From Calditrichota bacterium (GTDB taxonomy: Bacteria; Zhuqueibacterota; Zhuqueibacteria; Thermofontimicrobiales; Thermofontimicrobiaceae): a stretch of 64,000 nt of DNA. This document shows positions 40,852 to 46,953 of this stretch, one piece after another. A program made the translations under genes and the position numbers. The notes below the pieces were generated by a model. It ran no database searches. It was given only the letters and a program-made list of their open reading frames with translations, and was not told the origin of the DNA. The stretch lies in NCBI GenBank assembly GCA_013152715.1, contig JAADFU010000094.1, forward strand, positions 76,657 to 140,656, read 5' to 3'. The stretch's first letter is position 1. Every line of letters starts with the position of its first letter.

Positions 40852-41529
40852 ATGGATATTGAATTATTGAAAAAGGTGCCGATTTTTTCCAATCTTAGCG
40901 ATGAGGAATTGCAGAAAATCCGCAAACTGTGCGTAACGCAGCATTATGAAAAAGATCGTCTGATTCTCATTGAAGAAGAGAGCGGAAAGACGCTGTTTTT
41001 GATCCAAAAAGGCAGAGTGAAAGTGTCGCGCATGAGCGATGATGGCAGAGAAGTGATTTTGTCGATTTTGGGCGCCGGCGGTTTTTTCGGCGAGCTTTCG
41101 CTCATCGACGGAAAATCGCGTTCCGCCAGTGTGACCGCTATCGAAGATTCGGAGGTACTGCTGCTTCATCGGGCGGAGTTTTTGGTGCTCTTGGAAGATT
41201 ACCCGCAAATCGCAATCAGCTTGCTCAAAGAATTAGCGGCGCGCATTCGAAAGAGCGACACGCAAATTAAAAGTTTGTCGCTACAAGACGCCATGGGACG
41301 CGTAGCTTCGACTTTGATTTTGCTGGCGGAAGATAGCGGCAGAATCCGCCAGGGCACAGTCATCATTCCGAAAATTCCCTTGCAGCAAGACCTGGCAAAC
41401 ATGTCCGGAACGTCGCGAGAGACCATTTCGCGCGTTTTTCGCTATTTTGAAGAAGAACAGTTGATGACACGAGAAGGGCGGCGCGTCACTATTCCGGAAT
41501 ATGAAAAATTTAAGCGCATGTTTTCATAA
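40852..41529 (+). CDS. Crp/Fnr-family transcriptional regulator
   Basis: cNMP-binding beta-roll (GAGGFFGELSLIDG...RSASV) plus C-terminal HTH (TSRETISRVF). Confidence 0.85.
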   Translation: MDIELLKKVPIFSNLSDEELQKIRKLCVTQHYEKDRLILIEEESGKTLFLIQKGRVKVSRMSDDGREVILSILGAGGFFGELSLIDGKSRSASVTAIEDSEVLLLHRAEFLVLLEDYPQIAISLLKELAARIRKSDTQIKSLSLQDAMGRVASTLILLAEDSGRIRQGTVIIPKIPLQQDLANMSGTSRETISRVFRYFEEEQLMTREGRRVTIPEYEKFKRMFS

Positions 41530-41588
41530 CGACAAATTGAAATGATTAATCCGTAGCCACATTTATCTTTTCAGCCGGAGAATCCATC

Positions 41589-42038
41589 ATGCCTCAGAAT
41601 TTCGAGGGTCCCAGAGTCGGAGTGGGAGCTATTATCTTCAATGACAAAAATCAAGTTTTGCTCATCAAACGCGGCAACGTGCCTTACAAAGGCGTCTGGA
41701 CTATTCCGGGTGGCCGAGTCGAATTAGGCGAACCCGTGAAAGAGGCGGCGTTGCGCGAAGTGCGCGAAGAATGTCACCTCGAAATCGAATTAGTCGATCT
41801 GTTGGGCGTTGTGGATTTGATTTTAAAAAACAAGAATGGGACGGTAGATTTTCATTACGTTCTGATTGATTATCTGGCAAAATTCAAAAGCGGCGCACCT
41901 CGCGCGGATTCTGACGCGACGGACATCGGTTGGTTTTCTCGGGAGCAATGGGAAAAATTGGACATTCCGTCCATTACTCGCAAAATGCTGGAGAAGGCAT
42001 TCACTAAAATTTATCCCAGCGAAGAATCTTACAACTAA
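41589..42038 (+). CDS. NUDIX hydrolase
   Basis: Nudix box GGRVELGEPVKEAALREVREECHLE. Confidence 0.8.
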   Translation: MPQNFEGPRVGVGAIIFNDKNQVLLIKRGNVPYKGVWTIPGGRVELGEPVKEAALREVREECHLEIELVDLLGVVDLILKNKNGTVDFHYVLIDYLAKFKSGAPRADSDATDIGWFSREQWEKLDIPSITRKMLEKAFTKIYPSEESYN

Positions 42039-42102
42039 CTCTCATTTCGCAAATTAAAATGTTTCCGTAAAATTGAAATTATTCTTCAAAACAAATTTTC
42101 CC

Positions 42103-42131
42103 TTGACATTGGAAAAGATATTCGTTATTAT
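42103..42131 (+). promoter_or_regulatory. sigma70-type promoter (TTGACA-17-TATTAT) driving the amidase module via a ~200-nt leader
   Basis: TTGACA 42103-42108, 17-nt spacer, TATTAT 42126-42131. Confidence 0.45.
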
Positions 42132-42338
42132 ATTTTTGCAATATTTATTTTTTGAATGGAAAGTAGTCTCTTTGTCAAGGGCGAGTGGGCTTACTGAAAA
42201 AAAGATGTGAAGTCTCCTTTTCATTTTTTGCTACAAAACCATAGAACGTTTCGCCCGGCGATATTGCGATAATTTTATTTCTGCATTTTTTAACTGCTCG
42301 TACGTACTTACGTTTCGAATCAAAAAACAGGAGGGGCC

Positions 42339-43712
42339 ATGGTCAATTATGATACGATATTTGTTCCTTTGTCCGCCGCGCTGGGGCTTTCCATTACGCT
42401 CGAACGAATATTGGAAATCGCCAAAAACATCATGCACCGGCTCATTGGCAATCAGAGGGGCAAAAGAATTCCTTCTGACGATGACTTTGCACGCGACCTT
42501 GCCGAGCTCGAAAATAGTTACCGCAGAGAAAAGCGGACGCGGGAGATCGAGAAACTGATCAAAGAACAGAAAAAAGAGCGCAAGAAGATTCTGGAACAAC
42601 TCAAAAAGGAACGGGAGACAAAACATCCCGACGTCAAAAAGATTCAATCCTGGAAAAAACAGCTTCAAGAATTGGACACTGACGTCGAGTGCGACGAAGA
42701 ATTTCCGCAAGACACGGTGCTGGTCGAGCCGGCGACCGATCAGGGCGATGGCAAAACAATGAAGCGGTTCTTGTTGCAGATGTTTGGTTTCACTGCCGGA
42801 ATTATCGGTGCTCACTATTCGGGGATTCAGCTATTTAACAGTTTTCTCCAGGCATTGGGCCAGCCGGCGATGCCCGCTAATCTGGATTATTTGTTGACCG
42901 GTTTGTTGATTGGCGGCGGCAGCGGACCGATGCATGTGCTGGTGGAGTTTATTTCGCAGAGAAAAATAGTTTTGCTCAAAGAGAAAAAAACGGAAGGGGA
43001 AGGAGCCGCTGACACGGGGGACAAAGAGGCGCCGACGGTAAAAGTTACTCCTTCTGTGGGCGATGAGAAGCTCTGGGCGGATGTTGTTTACAAAGGCGGC
43101 GTGGATCGCGATTTGTTGGAATATGTCCATCGCCGGGAAAAAGACCCGGATTTGATTGTGTTTCATCACACCGCCATGCCCATGGATGCCAGTTTCGAAG
43201 ATATTGTTCGTTTCATCAAAGACAAACGCGATTCTCAGGGAAATCGCTGGCTTACCGGATACCATTGTGTGGTCATGCCGGACGGCGCAATTAACGCCTT
43301 TTGTCGCTGGGATCGTTATGGCAATCACACCGCCGGAGTGAATTTGACATCGCTGGGAATTGCGCTGCACGGAAATTTTGAAATCGACCATCGCGTTCCT
43401 CATTCCAACGCCGACGGCAGTTTCGGCGACCAACGCCCCACGGAAATTCAACTCAAAAATGCGGCGCGCGTGGTCGCGCTGTGGCATTATTTGTACAAAA
43501 TTCCGCTCGATTTTTCCCGATCAATTCTTCCGCACCGTTATTTTTCAGATAAAGCCTGTCCGGGATCAAACTTTCCTTACCCGGAATTTCAAAAGTGGGT
43601 GGATTTCTTCAGCGAGAGGTGGCAGAAATCCGCTTTCATTCAGGAGAAATTAGCGGAATTCAAATTGAGACCTTATGTTTACGCCGAGCATGGCGGGGAG
43701 GCGAAATCATGA
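42339..43712 (+). CDS. membrane-anchored N-acetylmuramoyl-L-alanine amidase (Amidase_2/PGRP domain) with a novel N-terminal three-helix membrane + coiled-coil module
   Basis: C-terminal 150 aa aligns motif-by-motif with T7 lysozyme/PGRP: IVFHHTAM (Zn His), GYHCVV (Tyr), GNHTAGVN, HRYFSDKACPG (His, Lys, Cys at +0/+6/+8). N-terminus has a TM helix, a highly charged coiled coil (residues ~40-120) and two more hydrophobic helices. Confidence 0.8.
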   Translation: MVNYDTIFVPLSAALGLSITLERILEIAKNIMHRLIGNQRGKRIPSDDDFARDLAELENSYRREKRTREIEKLIKEQKKERKKILEQLKKERETKHPDVKKIQSWKKQLQELDTDVECDEEFPQDTVLVEPATDQGDGKTMKRFLLQMFGFTAGIIGAHYSGIQLFNSFLQALGQPAMPANLDYLLTGLLIGGGSGPMHVLVEFISQRKIVLLKEKKTEGEGAADTGDKEAPTVKVTPSVGDEKLWADVVYKGGVDRDLLEYVHRREKDPDLIVFHHTAMPMDASFEDIVRFIKDKRDSQGNRWLTGYHCVVMPDGAINAFCRWDRYGNHTAGVNLTSLGIALHGNFEIDHRVPHSNADGSFGDQRPTEIQLKNAARVVALWHYLYKIPLDFSRSILPHRYFSDKACPGSNFPYPEFQKWVDFFSERWQKSAFIQEKLAEFKLRPYVYAEHGGEAKS

Positions 43713-44299
43713 CAGTACTGCTGAAAGTGACAGTTTTGTACACGTTGGCCTTAGCGCTTGCTTTCCTGGTTGAACGGCTGTTGGAAATTTTGAAGTCATT
43801 TTATGATTTACTGGATAGCAAATTTGATTTGTACAAATTCTGGACAGTTCGCGCGTACAAAACAAGGAACGTGCTGGAAAACAAACTCCGCGTAGTGGAA
43901 TTTTTAGGCGCAAAAAGCATGGCCAAAATGCTGGATAAATTCAGAGAAAAACTGCTCAACACTTCGGGCGAATATCAGGGCGCGTTGCCCGTGATTTCCG
44001 GCGACCTGGTTCGCGCGATGACGATTCGCACTTATTGCCGAATTTTGGGGATGATTTTTGGCGTCTTTCTGGCGATTTGGATGAAGGTCGATTTGATTCA
44101 AATATTCCAAGGCGCTGTCAGCGACATGACGCACTGGCACCTGGAAATTCGCTCTGATCTGGTGCGCTACATTTTGACGGGCATCACTTTAGGCATTGGC
44201 TCGGAACCGGTGCACAAATTGATCCGAACATTCGAAAGGCGGCAAAAACGGAAAGAAGCCGAAGCTATTCAACTCAAAGCAAAGGAGCATGTACAATGA
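43709..44299 (+). CDS. three-helix membrane protein, paralogue of the amidase's N-terminal module (no enzyme domain)
   Basis: ATG overlaps the upstream stop (ATGA). Shares LERLLEIL first helix, DLIQIFQG second region and LTGITLGIGSEPVHKLIRTFERRQ third region with LERILEIA / GIQLFNSFLQ / LTGLLIGGGSGPMHVLVEFISQRK of the upstream protein. Confidence 0.65.
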   Translation: MTVLLKVTVLYTLALALAFLVERLLEILKSFYDLLDSKFDLYKFWTVRAYKTRNVLENKLRVVEFLGAKSMAKMLDKFREKLLNTSGEYQGALPVISGDLVRAMTIRTYCRILGMIFGVFLAIWMKVDLIQIFQGAVSDMTHWHLEIRSDLVRYILTGITLGIGSEPVHKLIRTFERRQKRKEAEAIQLKAKEHVQ

Positions 44300-44727
44300 C
44301 TTTTGATTTACTTGTGGCGTTAGTCATTGCAATTATCGCAATTGTGATTTTTCTCCTCTACCAGTTGGGAAATTTGCCGAGAAGTAGCAAACGGAGCGTT
44401 TTATATTTCATCAGCGCCGCGGCGGCGATTTTTGGCATTTCCCTTTTCACCAATCATCGTCTGAAGCTTCTGCACAAAGAATTGCAGGAGCGTGAGAAAA
44501 AACTCCGCGAAAAAGAGGAAGAATTGAAGAAATTAAAAGACAAAGAAAAAATGTCGGAAAAAGAGCTGAATTTTATGAAGGCAAAATTGGAGCGGCAGGT
44601 CGACGCCTATCGGAAACTGATGCTGCAGATCAAAGCGAAAAATAAAGCGGAAAAAGAGCGAATCGACAAGTTGTCGGGCGAAGATTTGCACAATGAGTTC
44701 AGCGCCATATTCGGAGGGGGTGAATGA
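44296..44727 (+). CDS. inner-membrane protein with two N-terminal TM helices and a ~90-aa coiled coil
   Basis: ATGA start/stop overlap with the upstream gene; LLVALVIAIIAIVIFLL and VLYFISAAAAIFGISLF helices, then a heptad-rich EKKLREKEEELKKLKDKEK segment. Confidence 0.6.
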   Translation: MTFDLLVALVIAIIAIVIFLLYQLGNLPRSSKRSVLYFISAAAAIFGISLFTNHRLKLLHKELQEREKKLREKEEELKKLKDKEKMSEKELNFMKAKLERQVDAYRKLMLQIKAKNKAEKERIDKLSGEDLHNEFSAIFGGGE

Positions 44728-44786
44728 AAATTTCTGTAATTCCCAAAATTCGCGCGGGATGGTGAAAAACAGAAAAGGAGAAAATT

Positions 44787-45317
44787 ATGCGCAAATTTCA
44801 TTGGAGCCACACATTGGCAATTCTTTTGTTGCTCATTTCTTTTTTGCAGGCGCAAGAAACAAGCGACCAAAAATGTCAAATCGTCAAAGAATATCCGGAC
44901 GGCAGCGTGCTGATCAAAATCAACGACAAAGAGATGCTCGCTATCACCCAGGACATGGAACGGCGCATGTTGAAATTGAAGCGGGATGTTTTGGACGCGG
45001 AAAAGGAGATTTTGCTCAAAGACTCGCTACTTGCCAATTACGACAATACCATCGGCCAATATGAAAAAACGATCACACAGATGAAAGATTATATTCAGGA
45101 ATTGGAATATGTTCTTAAGGGCTACAAAAGCCTGGCGCGCGATTACAAAAAAATGCACGCGCCCTGGCTCAGTCTGCGCTTCGGAGTCGGTGCCACGAGC
45201 CGCGATCACAAACCAGCGATCATGATGGGGCTGGATGTTCGGCGAATTTTAATTTCAGGATTTGTGCAGGAAAGAAATTCCGGCGTGCTTGTGGGGACGA
45301 GCTTCCGCCTTTTTTAA
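44787..45317 (+). CDS. secreted coiled-coil protein with a short C-terminal beta region ending in Phe
   Basis: Signal peptide (cleavage near FLQA/QE), central coiled coil, C-terminal alternating-hydrophobic strands ...VLVGTSFRLF. Confidence 0.6.
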   Translation: MRKFHWSHTLAILLLLISFLQAQETSDQKCQIVKEYPDGSVLIKINDKEMLAITQDMERRMLKLKRDVLDAEKEILLKDSLLANYDNTIGQYEKTITQMKDYIQELEYVLKGYKSLARDYKKMHAPWLSLRFGVGATSRDHKPAIMMGLDVRRILISGFVQERNSGVLVGTSFRLF

Positions 45318-45511
45318 TTAAATTTGTGTCCAATGAGCTGGTTTAATTTCATTAGAGTCTTGCGAGATAGACTGCTAAAAAGTCAAAACATGCCACTCCT
45401 GCGAATGTCGGAGATGCGCTCTGGCATGCGGGAGTTCCCTGCTTATTAATAATGCGAATGACCGGTTAAAACTATTTTTAAAACGCTAATCTGTCGATTT
45501 TAAAAGGATAA

Positions 45512-45557
45512 CGCCTTAATTCCAAATCAGGAACGGAATTGAGGCGTAAAATTTTTA
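45512..45557 (+). terminator. terminator-like hairpin (12-bp stem, one G-U) downstream of the module
   Basis: cgccttaattcc / ggaattgaggcg stem, 11-nt loop, then taaaattttt; 195 nt past the stop at 45317. Confidence 0.4.
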
Positions 45558-45729
45558 TTAGTTTTCTTCAATGCAATTGTTGCGTAATGCGCTTGCCGTT
45601 CTTCAGTCTTTTTGATGTGGATTATCAAGAACATGGGATTCGAGGAACGTATTTTCAACAATGCAGTTACAATATTTGAAAATATCAACTATTTCTGATG
45701 AAATTTGTAATGCCTGGGGATAACATGTC

Positions 45730-46953
45730 ATGAGAACTGTAAATTCTGCAATTGTGATGTCAGATTTGCACCTGGGACGCGAATTGAGTTATCTGGATAC
45801 GCGGCACCCTTCGTTCGAGCAAAACCGCCAGCATTTTTGGGAAGTATTGGAGCAAGCCGGAGAAGTTGAAGAGATTATTATTAATGGCGATTTTTTCGAA
45901 ATTGCGATGGAGGGCTGGAGTGATGTCTGCGAGCAGGCGCGCGCTTTTTTCCGGGCGTTGGCAAAAGTAAGTTCGCCGCAGCGAATTGTTTACATTCCCG
46001 GGAATCATGATCATCATTTGTGGCAATCATTAGTGGAGCGATTTTACATCTTTAGCGCCATCAGGAATAGGCGCGATTTGCCTGATCAAGCGCATTATCC
46101 GCTCTATTTTGTCGACCGGAAATTCAGCAGCGCGAACCCGGAACACGCTGCACACATGATTTTGCCCGATTTATGGCCCGACAAGAAATCGCGGCCGGAA
46201 TTTATCATCAAATATCCGCATCATTTGTTGGGCGTCAAAACCAAACAGGGAATTGATTACTATTTTTTCACTCACGGCCATTTTTTGGAGCCGCTGTTTC
46301 GGCCTTTGAATTTTTTAATTGAACCCGCCCGAATTGATGAGTTGGAAGGTTTCAATGCCTTGTGGTTGGAGTCGTTCAATTATCATTTGGGTCACGCCAG
46401 TCGACTGAGCAAACGGGTGATGGCTATCCTTTCCAGTTACGAGCAAGGCTACAGAAAATCGAAAAAGAAAATCAACCGCATTCTGAACGAAATTTTTCTC
46501 AATGTCAAACGTAAAACTCATTTAGGAGACGTCGGGTCATTTTTTCTGAAAATGGGCATGAAATTCGTCCTCAGATATTTTCCCAAAGAGGGGAGCTCCG
46601 CATTATTTCAAAGACCGATTGACCGAAATCTCCTTTCGGAAATAGACAATTATCTGGAAAAATATATTTTCCAGCGCTACCGACCTGAAAATTACGAGCG
46701 TCTTTTTTTACCGTCCCGCGATAAAATTCCCGTTCCGTTCACTTTTGTCTTCGGCCATACCCATCGACCCAATTTCATGCCGCAGGATCTGGCTTTTTCA
46801 AAAATCAAACTTGACAGCGAAAAAATTTCTGTTTTGAATACCGGCGGCTGGCTGCGCATCGACAGCGAAAAACAGAACGGCGAAAATGCCGGTATCTTGC
46901 TGATCAACGAACAAGGAAATCAATGGCTGTCTCTGGCAGGAAAATTGCGCTGA
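45730..46953 (+). CDS. metallophosphoesterase (calcineurin-like) with a ~200-aa C-terminal extension
   Basis: MPP motifs DLHLG, GDFFE, GNHDHH, THGH, GHTH in canonical order. Confidence 0.8.
   Translation: MRTVNSAIVMSDLHLGRELSYLDTRHPSFEQNRQHFWEVLEQAGEVEEIIINGDFFEIAMEGWSDVCEQARAFFRALAKVSSPQRIVYIPGNHDHHLWQSLVERFYIFSAIRNRRDLPDQAHYPLYFVDRKFSSANPEHAAHMILPDLWPDKKSRPEFIIKYPHHLLGVKTKQGIDYYFFTHGHFLEPLFRPLNFLIEPARIDELEGFNALWLESFNYHLGHASRLSKRVMAILSSYEQGYRKSKKKINRILNEIFLNVKRKTHLGDVGSFFLKMGMKFVLRYFPKEGSSALFQRPIDRNLLSEIDNYLEKYIFQRYRPENYERLFLPSRDKIPVPFTFVFGHTHRPNFMPQDLAFSKIKLDSEKISVLNTGGWLRIDSEKQNGENAGILLINEQGNQWLSLAGKLR

Follow-up and report, generated by a model that had tools for sequence, protein, structure and literature searches.

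A 64,000-nucleotide (nt) stretch of Calditrichota bacterium DNA (assembly GCA_013152715.1, contig JAADFU010000094.1, positions 76,657 to 140,656 of the forward strand), called the window below, carries a cassette of four co-oriented genes, g1 to g4, at 42339-45317 on the + strand, behind a near-consensus promoter. The genes encode a putative membrane-tethered zinc amidase (g1), a smaller protein resembling the membrane part of g1 (g2), a predicted inner-membrane coiled-coil protein (g3) and a coiled-coil protein with a predicted signal peptide and a C-terminal beta region (g4). All four open reading frames (ORFs) are conserved, in the same order, in dozens of loci and are far beyond chance. 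The ORF list and a promoter scan put them, and the TTGACA-17-TATTAT promoter, where an earlier note on this DNA had located them (Table 1). That note had also described all four genes as coupled stop to start, which holds for g1, g2 and g3, joined by ATGA overlaps at 43709-43712 (g1/g2) and 44296-44299 (g2/g3), and does not hold for g4, which begins 59 nt beyond g3 and has its own AAAGGAG Shine-Dalgarno sequence.

Table 1. Features of the cassette and its borders, in window coordinates (aa, amino acids; AF2, AlphaFold2; pLDDT, predicted local distance difference test; TM, transmembrane).
Feature	Position	Strand	Basis
Promoter-like sigma-70-type site, TTGACA-17 nt-TATTAT	42103..42131	+	consensus match 11/12
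5' leader, ~200 nt, with GGAGG Shine-Dalgarno (42330-42334) at its end	42132..42338	+	
g1 ORF, 457 aa	42339-43712	+	
g1 N-terminal module, aa 1-207	42339..42959	+	AF2 helices, conserved residues
g1 disordered linker, aa ~208-250	42960..43088	+	low pLDDT
g1 C-terminal Amidase_2/PGRP zinc amidase and two extra C-terminal helices, stop included	43089..43712	+	PF01510
g2, 196 aa, g1-module paralogue without the enzyme, basic C-terminal tail	43709..44299	+	
g3, 143 aa, two TM helices and a coiled coil of ~70-90 aa, conserved C-terminal motif EKERIDKLSGEDLHNEF	44296..44727	+	
g4, 176 aa, signal peptide, small N-terminal domain, coiled coil, beta region	44787..45317	+	
Terminator-like hairpin and T-run, GTGGGGACGAGCTTCCGC then CTTTTTTAAT, overlapping the g4 end (putative terminator)	45291..45316	+	consensus scan

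The site at 42103-42131 is the highest-scoring promoter-like site in a consensus scan of 41500-46000, and its block, TTTTCCCTTGACATT..GATATTCGTTATTATATTTTTG, is kept almost base for base in an 88%-identical relative (locus L002); we infer that it acts as a functional promoter. When the leaders of seven relatives were aligned, the conserved parts were the Shine-Dalgarno sequence (GGAGG, invariant, 5-8 nt upstream of the g1 ATG) and, in the closest relative only, the promoter block. A riboswitch or leader RNA upstream of g1 was considered and rejected, there being no Rfam family for the leader (E<=1) and no conservation in distant relatives.

The enzymatic half of g1 is the most readily classified part of the cassette. 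Residues 268-409 match Pfam Amidase_2 (PF01510; E=2e-17, with a score of 64 bits where the cutoff is 26), and the domain also matches PHROG endolysin and amidase families (E about 6e-13). In Foldseek the nearest folds are phage and Clostridium endolysin amidases, with LysC/LysCS at template-modelling (TM) scores of 0.77-0.78 (LysC, E=2e-7, TM 0.78), while PGRPs, AmpD and T7 lysozyme are matched with a probability of 1.00; T7 lysozyme is recovered at the sequence level too. Residue conservation was scored on a subset of 16 diverse homologues, the 41-sequence set being too diverse for a pattern scan: none of them varies at His276/His277, Tyr308, His399 or Cys407, and at least 90% retain Lys405, which is replaced by Ser or Thr at two loci (L001 and L005). 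Thr occupies the equivalent position in active PGRPs, and the His-x5-Lys-x-Cys spacing is that of T7 lysozyme. By these matches g1 is a member of the Amidase_2/PGRP zinc amidase family with an intact site, and it looks active. Two further cysteines, specific to this amidase subfamily, flank a beta-hairpin (43266-43304): C322, in FCRWDR, is invariant and C310 at least 90% conserved, and neither position is a zinc ligand in T7 lysozyme or PGRPs. A C310-C322 disulfide is possible and, if formed, would favour a periplasmic amidase; a second metal site is possible alternatively.

Ahead of the enzyme lies a membrane module, which the AF2 model of g1 (whole-model pLDDT 85) builds from helices at residues 4-36, 47-93, 99-115, 137-161, 180-192 and 195-207. 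It opens with a long helix 1, which an acidic coiled-coil hairpin separates from helix 2, and closes with a kinked helix 3 rich in Gly, Ser, Pro and His; E22, R23, G188, G194 and H199 are invariant across 41 homologues. Module and enzyme are joined by a linker with pLDDT below 50 at residues 210-237, a flexible tether of ~45 residues, which in the homologues is variable in length (mean 37 aa), rich in Ala, Pro and Glu, and net acidic. The module belongs to no family in Pfam, NCBIfam, PHROG or PADLOC, and its modelled structure has no relative in PDB or among the viral structures of BFVD. On this confident model, it is to be regarded as a new membrane-protein fold family.

The relationship of g2 to this module is weak when single sequences are compared (BLASTP against the g1 N-terminus, 39 aa, E=1e-4) and strong between profiles (hhalign, 97.6% probability, E=4e-12, covering the helix-2/helix-3 hairpin). 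Two invariant motifs are common to both families: E-R-x-x-E, which follows helix 1, and G-x3-G-x-G-S-x-P-x-H, which lies in helix 3. Judged by profile and motif, g2 and the g1 membrane module are true paralogues. Two of the g2 helices are clearly hydrophobic and a third marginally so, and a basic tail follows (K+R 5.5 in ~19 aa). The gene overlaps the g1 stop codon, and its product fits the general description of a holin, a small inner-membrane protein with 1-4 TM helices and a charged C-terminal tail, encoded beside the murein hydrolase; it matches no recognised holin family by sequence or fold. Among 41 long homologues of the module the C-terminal domain is Amidase_2 in 36, with no other enzyme fused, the remaining matches being coiled-coil or helical and confined to one member each. 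The idea that the module is a general anchor for effector delivery was rejected on this count.

Both distal genes encode coiled coils. In g3, conserved in five relatives by alignment and in ~70 loci by hidden Markov model (HMM) search, the two hydrophobic helices are strong (Kyte-Doolittle 3.66 and 2.21), rather than the single N-terminal one of an inner-membrane (i-) spanin; the weak matches to a PHROG Rz-like spanin (E=0.01) and NCBIfam LysB (E=0.11) are at the noise level of coiled coils, and no Rz or LysB family match was obtained. The g4 N-terminus is a hydrophobic, type-I-like signal segment, followed by a small conserved domain and the coiled coil, and its last ~55 residues alternate in hydrophobicity in a way that fits four amphipathic beta-strands. 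The C-terminal residue is Phe in 51/64 homologues. The g4 sequence matched neither Pfam (YadA_anchor and OEP included, E<=1) nor PDB, and a lipobox, [LVI][ASTVI][GAS]C within the first 45 residues, occurs in 0/51 distinct homologues, so that g4 is not the small lipoprotein with a lipobox Cys that defines an outer-membrane (o-) spanin. Its C-terminus instead looks like an outer-membrane beta-strand anchor, and a homo-oligomeric barrel is plausible by analogy.

The protein descriptions of the earlier note survive these analyses: a complete amidase with all T7-lysozyme catalytic positions, the same membrane module without the enzyme in g2, two TM helices and a coiled coil in g3, and for g4 a secreted coiled-coil protein whose beta region has Phe as its last residue. 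The note had put forward several candidate roles and had not chosen among them. Its likening of the last three proteins to holin, i-spanin and o-spanin stands for architecture and autonomy, and fails for family membership, for the two TM helices of g3 and for the non-lipoprotein g4.

Two loci in relatives bear on g3 and g4. At L074 (9779-10741) g3 and g4 form one 320-aa ORF that keeps the hydrophobic core of the g4 signal peptide; this single case may reflect a lost stop codon or an assembly error. If genuine, the fusion conflicts with a periplasmic g3 coiled coil, and, being solitary and contradicted by the charge statistics given below, it was not relied on as a clue to topology. At L014 (10856-11617) the g4 end is overlapped by a following gene on the same strand, whose 253-aa product matches OMP_b-brl weakly (E=5e-5) and may serve that lineage as an additional outer-membrane partner.

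Topology was read from family-wide charge statistics and hydropathy. In g1 and g2 the N-tail and the helix-2/3 loop contain almost no Lys or Arg (0.1-1.2 per sequence) and are predicted outside, and the region after helix 3 is basic (net +3.1 in the g2 tail) and predicted inside. Both are thus predicted to be N-out/C-in three-helix proteins with a cytoplasmic middle domain. The earlier note had assumed an amidase facing the periplasm; the charge bias favours the opposite side and, helix 3 being marginal, makes a cytoplasmic location only somewhat the more probable one. The inter-helix loop of g3 is basic (K+R 2.1, D+E 0.0) and predicted inside, so that its coiled coil is predicted to be periplasmic. 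The side of the membrane that the amidase faces largely separates the two leading explanations of the cassette.

Word-indexed searches returned close relatives only. The g2 and g4 proteins of the window are 100% identical to GXO74 proteins, which marks the source as a metagenome-assembled genome of Calditrichota/KSB1 type. A joint g1-module/g2 alignment, used as the profile in an exhaustive search, gave 491 representatives at E<=1e-3 (163 at E<=1e-10), which are 50%-identity clusters of g1 and g2 types together among 1.84 billion representatives; the homologues fall into two sizes, ~180-200 aa and ~430-555 aa. A metagenome scan yielded 123 relatives, of which 80 loci were kept, and a scan of GTDB genomes with narrow KSB1-type patterns found five species. 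By local HMM searches the order g1-g2-g3-g4 is found in essentially every sufficiently long locus (~80-90 loci), as proposed earlier as a check, with median lengths of 449, 189, 145 and 178 aa and junctions of <=25 nt in 63/78 (g1-g2), 48/50 (g2-g3) and 38/57 (g3-g4) cases. Named hosts are KSB1, Calditrichaceae, a metagenome-assembled genome labelled 'Cytophagia', Chitinispirillaceae (Fibrobacterota) and Longimicrobiales (Gemmatimonadota), which we take to be members of the Fibrobacterota-Chlorobiota-Bacteroidota (FCB) group; the G+C content of the locus spans 43% to 73%.

In three independent relatives g1 is disrupted. One has an in-frame TAG inside the amidase (L006:7982-7984), with the same truncated product in a separate sample (L007); in another, helix 3 is closely followed by two in-frame TAA codons, beyond which the amidase continues in frame (L008:2555-2600); the third has a frameshift (L086:2047-3452), common to L085. 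Recoding of the stop codons at L006 and L008 is unlikely, normal L008 genes ending in TAA too, and the disrupted copies look like natural pseudogenes, or like g1 split into separate 'module' and 'amidase' genes. At L021 (13080-15397) a second, much more divergent g1'-g2'-g3' tandem lies directly downstream of a complete cassette, with a degenerate helix-3 GGGSxPxH motif and no g4' detected. With its rarity, disrupted g1 copies, tandem copy and variable flanks, the cassette is an autonomous, accessory, costly-looking unit.

The housekeeping, non-prophage setting described by the earlier note is borne out. The 64-kb window has no tRNA, and the G+C content does not shift (0.44-0.47 in the cassette versus 0.41-0.48 in the flanks). 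A Crp/FNR-family regulator and a NUDIX hydrolase are encoded directly upstream (40852-42038), likewise at L001, L002 and L010/L017, and the 42103 promoter may be under the control of this regulator. At the syntenic locus L002 the neighbours are YfiO/BamD, NadD-like, Crp, NUDIX, Metallophos, MeaB and HAD; in KSB1-type relatives Crp and NUDIX are syntenic upstream and the downstream genes differ, and relatives with g2 identities as low as 58% have the cassette at the same chromosomal position. The flanks hold 118 and 168 different Pfam families (240 non-redundant flanking proteins), dominated by metabolism and housekeeping; no neighbour is universal among the relatives' loci, and the 240 proteins include no recurrent family of phage structural proteins or integrases. 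Downstream in the window, the 412-nt intergenic stretch between g4 and a metallophosphoesterase gene contains a weak Rfam S4-Flavobacteria leader match (45496-45528, + strand, 23.9 bits against a gathering threshold of 35.2, E=0.41) that is probably due to chance. At L028 (509-1477) and six similar soil loci, a protein of ~322 aa with an N-terminal PG_binding_1 domain is encoded 57-115 nt upstream of g1 on the same strand, and may be a fifth component specific to one high-GC soil lineage (7 loci).

Beyond lineage synteny a single neighbour family recurs, eCIS_core/DUF4157, associated with extracellular contractile injection systems (eCIS). Polymorphic toxins of this family lie within 6 kb of the cassette in five distinct loci, drawn from at least three lineages with G+C contents of 43%, 53% and 65% and with g1 proteins 37-55% identical; the toxin domains are AHH nuclease, Endonuclease_NS_2, M14+VanY and Amidase_2, and an Afp15-like AAA ATPase or CIS_spike_tip gene is found upstream at some of these loci. 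Thus, three eCIS_core genes, CIS_spike_tip and CHAP adjoin the cassette at L014/L015; an AAA ATPase, an eCIS_core+AHH protein (1596 aa) and an AHH protein (740 aa) precede it at L091; eCIS_core occurs with PT-TG and Endonuclease_NS_2 at L027 and with M14 and VanY at L045; and an eCIS_core gene is directly downstream of the cassette at L068. One Chitinispirillaceae genome encodes, starting 426 nt after g4, a VRP1/TcA-like protein at least 1398 aa long. DUF4157 is reported to be highly specific to eCIS and characteristic of toxins located 3' in eCIS operons, and the release of eCIS is through lysis of the producer (PMC8213781). The Afp cluster carries its own lysis cassette (PMC12961389), and cassettes of the type 10 secretion system (T10SS) are located among housekeeping genes or inside Tc toxin operons (PMC10847048). 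In several relatives the cassette closes an eCIS toxin cluster on the 3' side or adjoins a TcA-like toxin, and this supports the analogy with a lysis cassette, since it is where known lysis and T10SS cassettes occur (PMC10847048, PMC12961389).

The reading preferred here, held tentatively and given a little less than an even chance, is that the cassette is a chromosomal lysis or T10SS-like release unit built from non-homologous parts. The claim is that it works like a lysis cassette or T10SS, not that it belongs to their families. The evidence comprises gene structure, conservation, paralogy, the intact amidase site, the lack of viral matches and the toxin or eCIS adjacency in some relatives; topology, assembly, trigger and a function in lysis or secretion are what we infer. 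In the proposed mechanism g1 and g2 would co-assemble in the inner membrane via their common three-helix module, which would keep the zinc amidase on its tether, probably at the cytoplasmic face. Altered membrane potential or pH, for example, could be the trigger on which the module would rearrange or form a lesion; a conserved polar cluster, Glu-Arg-x-x-Glu and Gly-Ser-x-Pro-x-His, lies in or just after the membrane helices. The amidase would then reach and cleave the peptidoglycan. The g3 protein, by an inner-membrane anchor and periplasmic coiled coil, and g4, by an outer-membrane beta-anchor and coiled coil, would bridge the periplasm, and would disrupt or fuse the outer membrane after the murein mesh is cut. 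The outcome could be lysis, or a local opening, in a subpopulation of cells, with release of large cytoplasmic cargo; the cargo in relatives is likely to be eCIS particles with DUF4157 toxins, or Tc-like toxins.

Several observations weigh against this reading. Adjacency to eCIS genes is seen in only ~5/44 loci having at least 3 kb of flank, and the window and most loci have no toxin or eCIS gene in view, their neighbours being housekeeping or metabolic; one locus (L043), with a g1 92% identical to that of the eCIS-linked L091, has no toxins in the 3.4 kb available upstream. In addition, g2, g3 and g4 lie outside every holin or spanin family (Pfam, NCBIfam, PHROG, PADLOC, fold), g4 is a non-lipoprotein and g3 has two TM helices. 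To our knowledge a covalent tether between 'holin' and 'endolysin' has no precedent among lysis cassettes. Finally, helix 3 is marginally hydrophobic (median best-17-residue hydropathy 1.36-1.48 versus ~1.9-2.3 for helices 1 and 2), so that the module may cross the membrane only twice and keep its tethered amidase permanently in the periplasm, an arrangement that would suit peptidoglycan remodelling better than lysis.

The strongest competing explanation, though on balance rather unlikely, concerns normal growth: a regulated trans-envelope complex that remodels peptidoglycan in order to separate daughter cells, coordinate the outer membrane with the murein, or form vesicles. Here g1 would be a membrane-tethered periplasmic amidase whose helices 1 and 2 span the membrane and whose helix 3 is interfacial and regulatory, g2 a non-catalytic regulator, and g3/g4 a strut across the periplasm that positions or activates the enzyme, comparable to FtsEX-EnvC-AmiA/B or Tol-Pal. 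It draws on the housekeeping context, the vertical synteny of KSB1-type genomes (several relatives keep Crp and NUDIX upstream), the even composition, the weakly hydrophobic helix 3 that could leave the amidase periplasmic, and the presence of the cassette in at least four FCB-group lineages, together with the PG_binding_1 protein directly upstream in seven soil loci and an M23 peptidase encoded nearby at L097. Yet a family of 491 clusters is rare for a housekeeping role, three independent relatives have g1 as a pseudogene and a tandem duplicate occurs at one locus, the flanks vary between lineages, and the strongly basic g2 tail and Lys/Arg-free loops favour C-in. The recurrent eCIS and Tc toxin neighbours are left unexplained. 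Nor do the cassette proteins show similarity to Amidase_3, LytM, FtsEX, TolQ/ExbB, TolQRAB or Pal, the EnvC match (E=0.18) being coiled-coil noise; by these sequence searches, membership in a divisome amidase-activator or Tol-Pal system is excluded, which settles the possibility, raised with the first description, that the genes form a known amidase-activator operon.

An anti-phage abortive-infection module, in which infection-induced envelope stress triggers g1/g2 and lyses the cell before phage maturation, is improbable. The cassette is patchy, accessory and autonomous in variable contexts, its small proteins resemble membrane effectors, KAP-family NTPase, AAA_16 or PD-(D/E)XK genes adjoin a few loci, and there are noise-level PADLOC matches to 2TM and SLATT effectors. 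Against this, such defence-island neighbours do not recur, no sensor (NTPase, nuclease or cyclase) is conserved with the cassette, and a four-part, envelope-spanning design exceeds the needs of an effector. A known defence system was rejected, no PADLOC match being convincing for any of the four proteins (best E=8e-5, g3 against a SLATT-type model over the coiled-coil/TM region; others E>=0.019).

That the genes are an ordinary lysis cassette of phage, either the relic of a decayed prophage or carried by unsampled phages, is very improbable and was rejected as the principal explanation: the amidase scores against PHROG endolysin families, its nearest fold is that of phage-type endolysins, and the gene logic is akin to endolysin, holin and spanins, but two scans of 2.9 million IMG/VR contigs found no g1 or g2 relative, tblastn of 50,697 GenBank phage records no g2 relative, and BFVD no structural match, while the window has no tRNA or G+C shift, the 240 neighbours include no recurrent phage family, and the chromosomal position is constant down to 58% g2 identity. 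The virome comparison called for at the outset thus leaves the cassette absent from the phage and viral collections searched, and by this and its housekeeping flanks it lies, like T10SS genes, outside phage.

How eCIS and very large toxins leave the cell is understood in few proteobacteria, where phage-derived holin/endolysin/spanin cassettes are used, and for most eCIS-bearing environmental phyla the particles are 'released by lysis' with no named mechanism (PMC8213781, PMC12961389). The cassette is a testable candidate for the missing release step in Gemmatimonadota, Fibrobacterota, KSB1 and Calditrichota. A more specific form of the release-unit reading, put forward with less confidence than the general one, joins these points: an undescribed FCB machine, made of a paralogue gate, a tethered amidase and a beta-anchored spanin analogue, would release eCIS or large leaderless toxins in lineages lacking canonical holin/endolysin/spanin cassettes, and would be a convergent 're-invention' of the lysis cassette or T10SS. 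If so, it would be a second, independently built way of crossing three envelope layers in order, and a hydrolase tethered to a putative gate and a non-lipoprotein outer-membrane partner would widen the holin and spanin models. A compact, inducible four-gene lysis module could also serve programmed release in biotechnology. Were the remodelling explanation true instead, the cassette would still be an uncharacterised trans-envelope system of amidase control in poorly studied phyla.

Set beside known systems, the cassette shares single features with several. Like AmiA/B/C-EnvC/NlpD-FtsEX and Tol-Pal, it encodes an amidase with coiled-coil envelope proteins in a housekeeping neighbourhood; unlike them, it uses Amidase_2 instead of Amidase_3, and has no LytM, FtsE/X, TolQ/R/A/B or Pal domains. 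Like trimeric autotransporter and TolC-type anchors, g4 has ~four amphipathic beta-strands, a terminal aromatic residue and a coiled coil directly before, whereas at ~176 aa it gives no YadA_anchor or OEP match. The Gly/Ser-rich, marginally hydrophobic helix shortly upstream of the catalytic domain recalls signal-arrest-release (SAR) endolysins, and this suggests membrane-state-dependent control of the enzyme. The SAR domain is an N-terminal helix, N-in/C-out, whereas the weak helix of the cassette is the third of three, is predicted to run out-to-in and is present in the enzyme-less g2 as well.

Further likenesses are to the lambda lysis cassette and T7 lysozyme. The lambda S105 holin is N-out/C-in, the topology predicted for g1 and g2, which also agree with it in three helices and a basic cytoplasmic tail; the His/Tyr/His/Lys/Cys positions of the g1 zinc amidase are those of T7 lysozyme, and the coiled-coil inner- and outer-membrane pair is reminiscent of lambda Rz/Rz1. 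The cassette departs from lambda in the predicted cytoplasmic helical insert of ~85-130 residues between helices 1 and 2, the weakly hydrophobic helix 3, the membrane-tethered enzyme, the two TM helices of g3, the non-lipoprotein g4 and its absence from every viral collection searched.

Another close parallel is with T10SS and other chromosomal lysis cassettes, such as Serratia ChiWXYZ and Yersinia entomophaga HolA-PepB-Rz-Rz1 (PMC10847048). As in these, four putatively co-transcribed genes outside phage encode a membrane protein, a peptidoglycan hydrolase, an inner-membrane coiled coil and an outer-membrane partner, at sites among housekeeping or regulatory genes or beside large toxin genes. 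Unlike in T10SS, g2, g3 and g4 have no sequence or fold homology to holins or spanins, the hydrolase is fused to one copy of a membrane module and followed by a second, enzyme-less copy, and the cassette is carried by FCB-group bacteria instead of Enterobacterales. Its hydrolase belongs to Amidase_2, whereas ChiX and PepB are L-Ala-D-Glu endopeptidases, and its outer-membrane partner, which lacks a lipobox, has a beta-signal-like Phe as the last residue. No description of the four-gene cassette was found in the searchable literature, and its non-enzymatic parts fall into no curated family. The logic of lysis cassettes and T10SS is already known; what is new is the components and the fusion of enzyme to putative gate.

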